Source: a virus
Taxonomy: Duplodnaviria > Heunggongvirae > Uroviricota > Caudoviricetes
Strand: one strand, 5' to 3'
Virus record (IMG/VR): IMGVR_UViG_3300045988_154997
Location: 1 to 64,000 of that record
Length of the DNA stretch: 64,000 bases
Part shown: positions 39,805 through 44,317 of the stretch, one piece after another
How the letters are laid out: the number at the start of each line of letters is the position of its first letter
How positions within the stretch are numbered: the first letter of the stretch is position 1
Translations under genes and position numbers: made by a program
Notes under the pieces: model-generated
Databases searched by the model: none
Told to the model about the DNA's origin: nothing
What the model saw: the letters and a program-made list of their open reading frames with translations, nothing else

Positions 39805-40794
39805 TTGATTTACTTGAAAATGGCTGGTTTTATAGTATTGTCATGCGATCGCTGCAACAGGATAAGAAAAATGATAAAAGAGACACCGGAAGTCAACACG
39901 CTATCTGAGTTATTAGGGGCTACGCCTCCCAAACCTCAGCTAGTAGTGACGACTAAAGGTATTGATTTAGGTCTGGATATCTCCCTCGGAGATTGGAATA
40001 ACTCTTCATTATTATCACGACCTTCAGCTTTGTTAGCAATTGAGCATGGGGAAAATTTATTTGAACTCATGGATAAAGAGTTAGGTCTTGTTGGTATTAA
40101 TGAAGAAGGAGTGATCAAGTCAAACATCATTATCGAACTAGATCCCCATAAAACAACTATGAGAATATTAGGTAAAATTGCGGAAGCACTCATTGTTGAA
40201 GAATGTGAAAAAAACGCGAAACAAAATGAAAACTGGGCATTATTAGCAAAGAGATATACCCCTTTCACAGATAGTTTGTCTAATTATAAAGCTGTTGGGA
40301 CTGGACTCAACTATACGAAAATTAACTATCCTACTAAATATCAACCTAATGATACTCAACGGGACATTGTGTGGATAGACAAACGAGACCCACTTTCTCA
40401 ATTACTTATTTCTGCTCCAACGTCGAATTCAGGTATACAGGCTGGAATTCAAGTGAAGGTCAGTGCAAATGGTCTTAACTATCTATCACCAATGGATTTT
40501 TCTAGCAGAAGATATGAGGTCCCTATTGTTTACTTTGATTTAAATAATGATTTTTTTGAAATTCAGATGAAGATAGTGAACTCAGGAATTGATTCGGTTT
40601 ATGGAATGGATTATCACCGTGGTAGAAACATTTCTCCTGAAATACATGAAAAACTATGTGCATATTATAACCTTATATACTCCATTATCATTGGTGATAT
40701 GAAATTAGAGGCTCTGTTACTAAATGAAGAGGCACTGAAAGGGTATGTGACTGAGATTAAAGATAGACAAGGTAAAAGAATAATCGTGACGTGA
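39805..40794 (+). CDS. AT-rich hypothetical protein (accessory, unknown function)
   Basis: 329-aa plus-strand ORF immediately after the integrase; no motif recognised; true start may be an internal ATG. Confidence 0.45.
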   Translation: MIYLKMAGFIVLSCDRCNRIRKMIKETPEVNTLSELLGATPPKPQLVVTTKGIDLGLDISLGDWNNSSLLSRPSALLAIEHGENLFELMDKELGLVGINEEGVIKSNIIIELDPHKTTMRILGKIAEALIVEECEKNAKQNENWALLAKRYTPFTDSLSNYKAVGTGLNYTKINYPTKYQPNDTQRDIVWIDKRDPLSQLLISAPTSNSGIQAGIQVKVSANGLNYLSPMDFSSRRYEVPIVYFDLNNDFFEIQMKIVNSGIDSVYGMDYHRGRNISPEIHEKLCAYYNLIYSIIIGDMKLEALLLNEEALKGYVTEIKDRQGKRIIVT

Positions 40795-40986: not shown

Positions 40987-41232
40987 TTATAATGTACTCA
41001 CCAGAGCGGCGAATTCCGTATAGCCACCGATAGATTCGCCATTTACGAACACCTGCGGTATGGTCTCCACCGGCTTGCCAACCAGGGCGCTCAATTTCTC
41101 TTTGTCTATCCCAGCAGACACAATATCGATGTATTCGTAATCGCCAAAACCGTGACCGTGAAGCTGCTTCGCCAGCTCGACCGCACGTTTGCAGTATGAG
41201 CAGTTATCTCGTCCATAGATAGTGATCGTCAT
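40987..41232 (-). CDS. Glutaredoxin (NrdH/Grx-like)
   Basis: 81 aa, active-site CSYC, thioredoxin-fold length. Confidence 0.75.
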   Translation of the reverse strand: MTITIYGRDNCSYCKRAVELAKQLHGHGFGDYEYIDIVSAGIDKEKLSALVGKPVETIPQVFVNGESIGGYTEFAALVSTL

Positions 41233-41521
41233 TGCTTTGCCTCGTTATGCGCTTCGCTGGGGAACGTGTAGCGGTTAGTGAAAGAGCTGAGGTGGTAGTG
41301 CTCGTGAATGTATGGATTTGACTTCTGCACCTGACGAGATGCGCGACGCGCATGTTTACATTTATTTCCCATATTGAGTCCTTTCAAGTGAGTATCCGAA
41401 AGAACTATACAGTTAACGTGCGTAAAAAGTAAGTGCTTACCTATCATTTATTGATAGAAGAATAGCCGCCTGTCGTGTGATACTATTTACAGAACTAAAC
41501 TGGCTTTCCACAAGGTGTAAA

Positions 41522-42343
41522 ATGACTATCCTTGAAAATCCTGATGCGAATGTTGAATCTGTTTATAGTCTTCATCCAACCACGTTGTTTCATTTTACAA
41601 AAAACGAAGATGCTTTCTATAGCATATTGGCTGAGAAATATTTTAAACCATTTCTTGCTCGCGAGGAAATAAGAGGAGTCGGGGGACGCAGGAGGTTTGC
41701 AGTACCAATGGTATCGTTTTGTGACATAAAACTATCACAAATCAGAGATCATAGCGGAAAATATGGAGAATTCGGTCTTGGGCTAACTAAGTCTTGGGCG
41801 GAAAAGAAAGGTCTACACCCAGTTCTATATATGAATAAGAGTAGTGAAATATTTTCTAAATACAATGCCAGAATTCGACTTATTAAAAATAAGTTGGTGC
41901 CGCTTTGGAAGGCTAGAGGAAATTTAGATACCAAAAACAGAATAGAGTTTGAGAAATTGAAAGCAGAATATTCTGATCTATATAATTTACTGCGTTATAT
42001 GAAAAATTACAGAGGCAAGCTAGAGCGAAAAGATAATAAAACAATAGAGAATTATATATATGCAGACGAGAAAGAGTGGCGTTATGTGCCAGCTCCTTTT
42101 ATTGGTGATTTATGGCCTAGTCTGAGTTTGGAGCGTGTTATCACTTCTGATGACAAAGCAAAAATTAGCTCAAAATTTTCAAAGTTTGGCATTGATTTTG
42201 AGTTCAATGATATAAAATATATACTTATACCTAAAGAACAACATATCCAAAAGCTAATTAACTTTCTCTCAGGTTTAGATGGATTTGAATCTTCAATTAT
42301 TAGCAAAATTCTGACCATGGATAAAGTAAAGCAAGATTTTTAA
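41522..42343 (+). CDS. DUF2971-like protein (candidate defence cassette, gene 1)
   Basis: RBS AAGGTG-N4-ATG at 41522; motifs LFHFTKNEDAFYSIL and HSGKYGEFGLGL resemble the LYKY.../...HKG.C.GF signatures seen in the clearer DUF2971 protein at 55116..55835; AT-rich. Confidence 0.45.
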   Translation: MTILENPDANVESVYSLHPTTLFHFTKNEDAFYSILAEKYFKPFLAREEIRGVGGRRRFAVPMVSFCDIKLSQIRDHSGKYGEFGLGLTKSWAEKKGLHPVLYMNKSSEIFSKYNARIRLIKNKLVPLWKARGNLDTKNRIEFEKLKAEYSDLYNLLRYMKNYRGKLERKDNKTIENYIYADEKEWRYVPAPFIGDLWPSLSLERVITSDDKAKISSKFSKFGIDFEFNDIKYILIPKEQHIQKLINFLSGLDGFESSIISKILTMDKVKQDF

Positions 42344-42369
42344 TTTTTGGTTTAACGGGAGCCTAATTA

Positions 42370-43581
42370 GTGTCAATATTTTTAAGCGAAAAGGAAATGC
42401 AAAATTGGATAATTGACAAATTATCTGATCAAGATGGATTATATAATTCAATCATCAATATTGATAAATTAAATGAATTTAATCCGAAAAGACCCGAAGA
42501 GAAAAAAATTAAGGAGAGTTATCAGTTTTGTTTAAAGAACATAACATTGTTACATTTAATGACAGATGATGAGAATATCTCAGCAACAAAATCTGAGATA
42601 TTAAGACCTGATGTCGTTGCTTATTCAACAGAGAATGAATCCTTAGTTCTTATTGAGTTAAAAAATTTTTCAACACCAACAAGGGAAGCTGGAACTGAGC
42701 TAGTGGCATATGCTGCGGAACTAAAAAGTTACTTGTCATACTTGTCTGATGGAGATATTACCAATGTACTTATATCACCTGACTGGCCACCTTTGGTTAG
42801 ACACTTTATTTTTAATATGATCGTGTGGCAGAAGAAAAACTTTCTATGTTTAGAACCTTGCTATGATTTACAAGGTAACGTATCACTTACTCCTTTAGAT
42901 ATTAATAAATTAGTTATTGCGGAAGAAGCACTCAAGTTCTCATTTCGTCATCTTGGCGGGTTTCATATATGTTTGTATGATGATGAAATGTATAATCAAC
43001 CGACTTCCACTTCTCGTTTACATTCGAAATTGAATGTTATTAAAGCCAGCATGGCAAAAATGTCCTCAGACGGTGAAAAGACTAATAGCCATGGGTTTGC
43101 TATTTTATGTAGAAATTTGAACGAGAGAACTTTAGCACCATATACGATTACTCTAGTTAATGTTTCTGCGTTTTCTTCCATAGAGCGATACTTTCATTCG
43201 CCACAAATATCCAATGCTTCTCAACTCCCTAGAATAGGACAAAAAATTTATGACATTTACACTCATTACCAACCATCAGGTTTTGGGGCATCAATGTCGA
43301 AAATTTACAATTCTGGGAGGGCATATTTAGAAAAAATTAATTGCAAGCCGCGGATCGAGGTTATAGACACCTGGGATGTATTGCAAGTACATACACATGC
43401 GCCTTATATGGAAATGGTTCATATTGAAACGTGGGGAGTTTTTAAAGAAAAATTGATTGAAGGTCTAAATGAATGTTATGAGGATGAATATTACACACCT
43501 GATTTTAACGATGTAGATTTTTGCATGGTGTGTATTGAATCCTTAATTGACCAGAATTATGAATTTATAAAACTTTTTTGA
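42370..43581 (+). CDS. PD-(D/E)xK nuclease-like protein (candidate defence cassette, gene 2)
   Basis: GTG start with GGGAG RBS; N-proximal RPDVVAYSTENESLVLIELK fits D...E-x-K restriction-endonuclease-like motif; rest unrecognised. Confidence 0.45.
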   Translation: MSIFLSEKEMQNWIIDKLSDQDGLYNSIINIDKLNEFNPKRPEEKKIKESYQFCLKNITLLHLMTDDENISATKSEILRPDVVAYSTENESLVLIELKNFSTPTREAGTELVAYAAELKSYLSYLSDGDITNVLISPDWPPLVRHFIFNMIVWQKKNFLCLEPCYDLQGNVSLTPLDINKLVIAEEALKFSFRHLGGFHICLYDDEMYNQPTSTSRLHSKLNVIKASMAKMSSDGEKTNSHGFAILCRNLNERTLAPYTITLVNVSAFSSIERYFHSPQISNASQLPRIGQKIYDIYTHYQPSGFGASMSKIYNSGRAYLEKINCKPRIEVIDTWDVLQVHTHAPYMEMVHIETWGVFKEKLIEGLNECYEDEYYTPDFNDVDFCMVCIESLIDQNYEFIKLF

Positions 43582-43584
43582 AGA

Positions 43585-43608
43585 AAAGGGGCCGAAGCCC
43601 CTTTGAAT
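43585..43608. terminator. bidirectional hairpin terminator (GGGGC-cgaa-GCCCC) closing both the plus-strand cassette and the minus-strand tRNA operon
   Basis: Read directly; T-run TTTTCTTCAAAAAA on minus strand, weaker T-run on plus. Confidence 0.6.
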
Positions 43609-43679
43609 ATTGCGCTGAAAAAAAGTGTTGCTAGGATGTTAGCAAGCTATGGTTAAGAACGTCTGCCGTAATTGTCAAT

Positions 43680-43759: not shown

Positions 43760-43846
43760 TGGCGGAGAGTAATGGAATCGAACCATCATCGTTTGCACAA
43801 TGGGACGATTTTCAAGACCGCTTGAGCACCATGCTCCCTACTCTCC
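43760..43846 (-). tRNA. tRNA-Ser (anticodon UGA), type II (long variable arm)
   Basis: Acceptor GGAGAGT/ACTCTCC, discriminator G, encoded CCA; anticodon loop CTTGAAA; T-arm GATGG-TTCGATT-CCATT; D-arm non-canonical (A8), so needs tRNAscan confirmation. Confidence 0.6.
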
Positions 43847-44070
43847 GGCCGTTGTGGTGGCCGGTACTGAATCTCCGGCATACGGTGCAGCCAATTAGGA
43901 CTACGGACGATCACCGCTCGCGAAAGGGAAGATTTGCGGCCGCATTTCCCTAACATCCAAGAAAGCTATCGCATCAGTCTGCGAATCCACCACAACGGTA
44001 AGATCACTACCTTTCGACCAGTCATTGTGCACATGAACGACGATTAACCGTAATGATCTTATCGTTGTAT

Positions 44071-44146
44071 TGGTGCCGGTTAACGGACTCGAACCGCTGA
44101 CATCCTGCTTACAAGGCAGGCGCTCTACCAACTGAGCTAAACCGGC
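44071..44146 (-). tRNA. tRNA-Thr (anticodon UGU)
   Basis: GCCGGTT-TA-GCTC-AGTTGGTA-GAGC-G-CCTGC-CTTGTAA-GCAGG-ATGTC-AGCGG-TTCGAGT-CCGTT-AACCGGC-A-CCA; canonical cloverleaf, 76 nt. Confidence 0.85.
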
Positions 44147-44150
44147 AATT

Positions 44151-44237
44151 TGGTGGGGAGTGATGGAGTCGAACCACCCGAGTCGCAATGACAGTAGATT
44201 TACAGTCTGTCCCGCTACCTCTACGGACTAACTCCCC
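44151..44237 (-). tRNA. tRNA-Tyr (anticodon GUA), type II
   Basis: Acceptor GGGGAGT/ACTCCCC, discriminator A, CCA; D-stem GTCC/GGAC; anticodon loop CTGTAAA; T-arm GGTGG-TTCGACT-CCATC; overall similar to E. coli tRNA-Tyr. Confidence 0.75.
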
Positions 44238-44242
44238 TAAAT

Positions 44243-44317
44243 TGGCGATGGTGGGTGGATTCGAACCACCGACCAGTTGGTTAACAGCCAACTGCTCTAC
44301 CGCTGAGCTACACCATC
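44243..44317 (-). tRNA. tRNA-Asn (anticodon GUU)
   Basis: GATGGTG-TA-GCTC-AGCGGTA-GAGC-A-GTTGG-CTGTTAA-CCAAC-TGGTC-GGTGG-TTCGAAT-CCACC-CACCATC-G-CCA; canonical, 75 nt. Confidence 0.85.

Follow-up and report, generated by a model that had tools for sequence, protein, structure and literature searches.

An AbiGi-family gene and an unnamed PD-(D/E)xK nuclease gene share a variable cargo slot of an SSU5-type phage-plasmid and may be stacked single-gene anti-phage modules

The 64-kb window analysed here (positions 1 to 64,000 of the IMG/VR record IMGVR_UViG_3300045988_154997, to which all coordinates refer) is part of an SSU5-type Escherichia coli phage-plasmid. It contains a cassette of two AT-rich, co-directional plus-strand open reading frames (ORFs), 41522..42343 encoding protein 1 and 42370..43581 encoding protein 2, which a first-pass annotation had read as a two-gene defence system. 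The slot that holds them is laid out as follows.

41229..41447, minus strand: left-hand limit of the slot, formed by a 72-codon scar ORF in which the 5' part of phoH is fused to the last gp49 codons
41448..41521, plus strand: region upstream of protein 1, including the ribosome-binding site (RBS) AAGGTG (41512-41517), identical in the 99.2%-identical variants
41522..42343, plus strand: protein 1 (273 aa), AbiGi family, candidate for a DarT-like ADP-ribosyltransferase (ART) fold, without AbiGii
42344..42369, plus strand: 26-nt spacer with the RBS GGGAG (42357-42361), identical in the 99.2%-identical variants
42370..43581, plus strand: protein 2, uncharacterised family phrog_30092, PD-(D/E)xK domain followed by an alpha/beta C-terminal half
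42547..42864, plus strand: nuclease domain of protein 2, approximately residues 60-165
42952..43482, plus strand: C-terminal half of protein 2, approximately residues 195-371, two beta-alpha-beta units
43585..43608, no strand assigned: G+C-rich hairpin, attributed to the backbone by backbone homology and fold

The gene for protein 1 starts with ATG and that for protein 2 (403 aa) with GTG, each behind its own RBS, and 26 nt separate the two, as the first-pass annotation had described. Both starts agree with those of homologues: P0057 and P0058 are likewise 273 aa each, and an 'MSIF' N-terminus is found across the protein 2 family. The foreign composition that had been noted by eye was borne out by calculation, with a GC content of 0.339 for the first gene and 0.333 for the second and a GC content at third codon positions (GC3) of 0.281 and 0.280, compared to a GC content of 0.447 for the window and a GC3 of ~0.5 for backbone genes. 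Additionally, the 2134-bp cassette is the GC minimum for that length across the 64-kb window (0.08th percentile). Co-transcription of the two genes is likely, because a terminator scan between them found no terminator-like site. A promoter scan of the region upstream of protein 1 (41448..41521) found no consensus promoter and was uninformative, returning fewer consensus matches than shuffles.

Protein 1 had been taken for a DUF2971-like protein, but it matched the AbiGi family over its full length (PADLOC E 5.5e-47; Pfam PF10899, 89.3 bits against a cutoff of 22.4), and PGAP already annotates it as 'AbiGi family'. DUF2971 (PF11185) was rejected as its family, as the Pfam search at E<=1 returned AbiGi and a chance CASP_C match only; the two share a similar N-terminal H-x-T motif, and DUF2971 is a superfamily relative on the basis of the literature. 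Since DUF2971 is reported to be significantly similar to both AbiGi and DarT (PMC12522546), the earlier guess was a near miss within one superfamily. Compared to the AbiGi proteins of Firmicutes, protein 1 is divergent, with an identity of only 25-30%, and against the NCBIfam AbiGI equivalog it scored 52 bits, far under the 300-bit cutoff.

A 2025 survey places AbiGi among the ART-like families (PMC12522546), whereas a 2026 review of lactococcal abortive infection (Abi) systems lists AbiGi and AbiGii without a known fold match and the AbiG mechanism as not recognised (PMC13064643); the two literatures seem to be unconnected. In protein 1, the residues H24-F-T26 (41591-41599), S65-F-C67 (41714-41722) and E183-K-E185 (42068-42076) are invariant or at least 90% conserved among 41 homologues, and the resulting H-x-T / S-x-C / E-x-E pattern satisfies the ART signature [R/H]x[D/T] - [S/Y]xx - [Q/E]x[Q/E/D]. 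These candidate catalytic residues were picked out from the sequence pattern and their place on the strands, not from a residue-level superposition. The best structural match to the AlphaFold2 (AF2) model of protein 1 (predicted local distance difference test score, pLDDT, 90.8) were to DarT, the single-stranded DNA thymidine ADP-ribosyltransferase of DarTG, which Foldseek also ranks first, though at a non-significant E of 0.12. Two features set protein 1 apart from DarT, a long insertion at residues 110-157 that forms a helical hairpin, and an additional region at the C-terminus. No link to DarT was found by sequence (Pfam, E<=1), a profile search of the PDB at E<=10 matched no solved structure, and a scan of three ORFs and of protein 2 revealed no DarG-like macrodomain partner. 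We infer that protein 1, instead of being an 'antitoxin', may be the active effector and work as an NAD+-dependent ADP-ribosyltransferase. The 'antitoxin/toxin' labels given by Pfam are putative, because neither lactococcal AbiGi nor AbiGii was toxic in E. coli (PMC3985639).

Protein 2 is a member of phrog_30092 (PHROG E 7e-243), to which PHROG assigns no function, and searches of PADLOC and NCBIfam gave no match. The Pfam family HSDR_N_2 scored 16.7 bits, below its cutoff of 25. At 90% identity the family falls into 54 clusters, and a profile search gave 450 representatives at 50%; its named members are all 'hypothetical'. The PD-(D/E)xK signature that the first-pass annotation had pointed out proved to be invariant in 32 homologues. 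Its motifs are D81 (42610-42612), E96-x-K98 (42655-42663) and E110xxxY114 (42697-42711), and the invariant residues include P80-D81, E96-x-K98, R105, G108-T109-E110 and Y114. In the AF2 model (pLDDT 91.1; predicted template modelling score, pTM, 0.86), residues ~60-165 carry this catalytic motif on the alpha-beta-beta-beta-alpha-beta core that characterises PD-(D/E)xK nucleases, with a D...ExK...(Q/E)xxxY pattern which we take to be of the RecB/NucS type. The C-terminal half, with its two beta-alpha-beta units, is presumed to have a regulatory or sensor role, and no modified-base reader fold was recognisable in this part of the model. A profile search of the PDB at E<=10 matched no solved structure, and tblastn against 50,697 records of deposited phage genomes found no match to protein 2.

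The nuclease domain thus has the fold and motifs of NucS/EndoMS, RecB/Cas4-type and restriction PD-(D/E)xK nucleases, and protein 2 resembles SduA of Shedu in that one gene encodes both the nuclease and an accessory, non-catalytic domain. However, hidden Markov models (HMMs) of NucS, Shedu/DUF4263 (SduA), Cas4 and Mrr did not match it. It also differs from the known members in that the nuclease domain is N-proximal and followed by an unplaceable alpha/beta half, in lacking a methyltransferase, helicase or clamp-binding context, and in the existence of a long form of ~720 aa. From type I HsdR it is distinguished by the sub-threshold HSDR_N_2 score and the lack of a helicase domain, and the slot contains no restriction-modification genes. 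Among the top 150 representatives of the superfamily, 64 (~40%; proteins P0288-P0386) have the long form, which consists of the whole protein 2 module followed by a conserved 350-aa C-terminal domain. Searches of Pfam and PADLOC left this extension unmatched, and it resembles neither AbiGi nor AbiGii and shows no self-similarity.

The 2.1-kb cassette was found in 18 PLSDB plasmids of ~111 kb at 99.1-100% identity, and in 19 of 5426 complete E. coli genomes, every time on such plasmids and with both genes intact. Among the variants, synonymous changes outnumber non-synonymous ones (9:4 and 2:0 for protein 2; 2:1 and 3:1 for protein 1), and these ratios, together with the intact copies in 19 genomes, indicate that both genes are maintained. 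CP116917.1, which is among the 18 plasmids, has a cassette shortened by 2 bp and a split, two-part match to protein 2; either a frameshift or a sequencing error may account for this.

Among phage records, Escherichia phage CMS-2020a and Cyrano come closest, with SSU5 farther off. In Cyrano the slot is empty and tRNA-Ser directly follows the grx operon. The E. coli plasmid pGD31-F25 has a gene for a 302-aa hypothetical protein in this position, and pHH107-1, also an E. coli plasmid, has two unrelated hypothetical genes. Klebsiella SSU5-like elements harbor AbiGi alone, 64-65% identical to protein 1, with tRNA-Ser ~200 bp further on. The hotspot position suggested by the first-pass annotation is therefore upheld: the slot adjoins the lysogeny module and the tRNAs, and its cargo differs among relatives. 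Judging by these alignments, the interval between the grx/(gp49/phoH) operon and the terminator of the tRNA operon is a true, recombination-prone cargo hotspot. In its swapped cargo and clean junctions it behaves like the accessory loci (old, tin, int-att) of prophages related to phage P2. A literature search found no report of this SSU5 slot or its cargo.

On the right, backbone homology restarts at 43573-43584 in Cyrano, the two E. coli plasmids and the Klebsiella elements, whatever the cargo. The Klebsiella AbiGi stops 15 bp short of this flank, so that protein 2 with its RBS represents a clean gain or loss of 1.24 kb. To the left, 41317-42132 of the window aligns with the Klebsiella AbiGi locus at 70%, upstream region included. 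The hairpin at 43585-43608, which had been described as the terminator of the cassette, does exist, with an 8-bp G+C-rich stem and a folding energy of -13.2 (plus strand) or -13.6 (minus strand) kcal/mol. Because backbone homology restarts at 43573-43584 in all relatives, the hairpin belongs to the backbone and not to the cassette. It sits downstream of the leftward tRNA genes (43760-44317), and its minus strand bears a UUCG loop and a UUUUCUUC U-rich tail, so it is likely the conserved terminator of the minus-strand tRNA operon; at best it possibly stops cassette transcripts as well, acting bidirectionally. At the other border, residues 26-71 of the ORF at 41229-41447 share 38% identity with the N-terminal end of PhoH from Klebsiella (E 1e-6), and its C-terminal EAKQ matches the C-terminus of Gp49. 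No intact phoH or gp49 was found elsewhere in the window; in relatives both are intact and flank the slot. From this pattern the 72-codon ORF is read as a deletion scar.

Genomic neighbourhoods were compared for both families. No AbiGi was found by tblastn and phmmer beside protein 2 homologues at any of 33 genome loci from many phyla, nor at 16 further loci, and an all-against-all BLAST of the 33 loci gave no recurrent neighbour family. The 112 neighbours searched in bulk against Pfam and PADLOC were a mix of housekeeping genes, integrases, insertion sequence (IS) elements and scattered defence genes. The closest homologues of protein 2, at 41-52% identity, come last in the cI-int operon of prophages resembling phages P2 and 186, where, at 18 loci in 186-like prophages, they begin 2-13 bp past int. 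They thereby occupy the int-att slot, a region described as a minor defence hotspot in P2-like phages (PMC13586616). Protein 2 homologues are AT-poorer than their flanks at 55 of 58 loci, and of prophages and phage-plasmids that are otherwise alike, only some carry the gene.

Starting from AbiGi, a protein 2 homologue was adjacent at 1 of 95 AbiGi-family loci (L078), which is the identical element, and an AbiGii HMM had no match across the 95 loci. A coupled downstream ORF was present at 15 of 60 loci, and at 27 of the 49 loci with room on both sides there was no coupled ORF on either. The AbiGi clade of protein 1 (Proteobacteria and Bacteroidota) is usually solo, and the AbiGi genes closest to that of protein 1 are likewise without a partner, lying in a defence island, at the end of a prophage, beside AbiH or, on IncF plasmids, beside Avs4. 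In Firmicutes, AbiGii starts 1-2 bp after AbiGi. The solo AbiGi of the E. coli IncF plasmid pEQ011 (L071, 4001-4822) is 71% identical to protein 1, occurs in ~40 plasmid records, and is flanked by DUF905/ParB-like/psiB leading-region genes and an Avs4 gene. At L122, L137, L124/L126 and L094/L096, AbiGi is tightly coupled to genes of the restriction-endonuclease (REase) fold, which encode Mrr_cat, Mrr_cat with an M78 peptidase, a NERD-UvrD helicase, and an ORF with an RPDLIAY..IEAKG motif; P0090 is an AbiGi homologue fused to HNH nuclease domains. The partners with a PD..ExK motif (L094, L141) were rejected as distant relatives of protein 2, with an hhalign probability of <=1.2%.

Because each gene occurs without the other in all other sampled genomes, the locus most likely represents stacked single genes rather than a two-gene system. 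We therefore consider it somewhat probable that, in this hotspot of a phage-plasmid, two anti-phage candidates that each act as a single gene and independently of the other have come to be stacked and co-transcribed. The two-gene system proposed in the first-pass annotation loses its footing here, as neither gene is linked to the other outside one E. coli plasmid lineage. Its statement that the pair matches no named system holds for the pair, with nothing passing for protein 2 in PADLOC, Pfam or NCBIfam, but not for protein 1, which belongs to AbiGi, a named component.

The defence role and both enzymatic activities are putative, and a mechanism may be pictured as follows. The cassette would be an accessory cargo block of two independently mobile single-gene modules that came to be stacked and co-transcribed by chance. 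Protein 1 would be held inactive until infection and would then modify nucleic acid or protein, so that phage development is aborted. Protein 2, as a stand-alone PD-(D/E)xK nuclease of the NucS/RecB type, would be expressed in lysogens and cut invading DNA, with its C-terminal half gating or targeting the nuclease. Together with its own RBS it would form a clean unit of 1.24 kb that was inserted downstream of the AbiGi stop codon and upstream of the backbone terminator, or that was lost in Klebsiella.

Several points weigh against this interpretation. The two genes have near-identical GC3 values, are separated by a short gap without a terminator and always occur together in their lineage, and an operonic two-component system would look alike in composition, spacing and co-occurrence. 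Canonical AbiG consists of two genes, with a partner of ~400 aa, which is the size of protein 2. Other AbiGi genes lie beside REase-fold genes (Mrr_cat twice, a NERD-helicase and an ORF with a PD..ExK motif), and one is HNH-fused. As lactococcal AbiGi alone was non-toxic in E. coli (PMC3985639), the 'effector' role of protein 1 is putative, and the defence reading of either gene draws on family and context.

The strongest alternative, to which we give clearly less credence, is a true two-component Abi system: an AbiG variant in which AbiGii was replaced by a non-homologous PD-(D/E)xK nuclease and both genes are needed, one to sense or regulate and the other to execute. AbiG, known since 1996 and found on Lactococcus pCI750 and in Firmicutes, is among the closest known systems; the lactococcal one has the major tail protein as its trigger. 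Protein 1 is a full-length AbiGi member, the layout is the same, with AbiGi promoter-proximal and a gene for ~400 aa shortly behind it on a mobile carrier, and canonical Firmicutes AbiGi always precedes its ~400-aa partner. The operon-like layout, the shared composition, the joint presence of intact genes in 19 genomes, and the coupling of other AbiGi proteins to REase-fold proteins or their fusion to HNH are also consistent with such a system, and chimeric systems built at P4/P2 hotspots have proven functional (PMC13586616). The cassette differs from AbiG in lacking AbiGii (no match to PF16873 or PADLOC at E<=1), and protein 1 falls below the equivalog cutoff and belongs to a clade that is usually solo. 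Protein 2 was rejected as a divergent AbiGii, with no HMM match and an hhalign probability of 0.12%, compared to 153-524 bits against PF16873 for true AbiGii proteins. However, the pair is confined to one near-clonal lineage (>=99.2% identity), so the co-retention of the two genes carries little weight, and elsewhere either family is overwhelmingly alone, with the Klebsiella relatives carrying AbiGi by itself in the same slot. The long relatives of protein 2, considered as a possible Rosetta-stone fusion, provide no such link, since their 350-aa extension is unrelated to AbiGi and AbiGii.

Less likely again is a non-defence role, in which protein 2 would be a nuclease for maintenance or selfish ends (as an addiction module, as a restriction-like element that has no methylase, or as a helper of recombination or excision) and protein 1 an ART toxin for plasmid stabilisation or host manipulation. 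The position of protein 2 homologues directly after integrase genes would fit this, as would the housekeeping neighbours that solo protein 2 genes often have and the many effectors and toxins within ART families (PMC12522546). Yet the presence of protein 2 in only part of the similar prophages and phage-plasmids marks it as accessory and not as integration machinery. It is AT-rich, mobile, scattered over phyla and found in slots reported for defence genes (PMC13586616), and AbiGi comes from an experimentally validated lactococcal Abi system (PMC12184496). That the genes are decaying remnants without function is very improbable: a deletion scar adjoins the slot and protein 2 of CP116917.1 may be frameshifted, but both ORFs are full-length for their families with all catalytic residues kept, and synonymous changes exceed non-synonymous ones among the variants.

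Other features of this region were also recorded. A third AT-rich ORF on the plus strand (39805..40794, probable start at 39874; GC 0.36; 306-329 aa) lies in another variable slot, which is flanked by the integrase and grx. Nothing matched it in Pfam, PADLOC, PHROG or NCBIfam, and its 68 homologue clusters, all 'hypothetical', come from Proteobacteria, Clostridia and a Clostridium phage. In relatives, this slot contains a YafO toxin with a hypothetical gene, or a gene for a 184-aa hypothetical protein. The tRNA cluster on the minus strand (43760..44317) comprises four genes, Ser-TGA, Thr-TGT, Tyr-GTA and Asn-GTT, and is 79-93% identical to clusters of unrelated phages (P7, D6 and N4-like); Cyrano lacks tRNA-Tyr.

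Finally, the locus is best described as a known family, AbiGi, in an under-appreciated solo and ART-like guise next to an unnamed family within a very common nuclease superfamily. It serves as a caution that adjacency, shared AT-richness and a hairpin are insufficient to define a 'system' where hotspots stack and swap modules. We see only an outside chance that AbiGi, as a DarT-like ART effector that is solo in most Proteobacteria and Bacteroidota, has here recruited a PD-(D/E)xK partner whose role would be either to read or cut the ADP-ribosylated nucleic acid or to act in place of AbiGii as a further executioner; if true, AbiGi with a PD-(D/E)xK nuclease would constitute a new ART-plus-nuclease, two-step mechanism of abortive infection. 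The protein 2 family, with its ~450 representatives at 50% clustering, has no name and is a candidate for a new single-gene defence. For AbiG itself, the mostly solo clade, the intact ART-type signature and the best match of the model to DarT together suggest the testable hypothesis that AbiGi may be an ADP-ribosylating effector and not an antitoxin.

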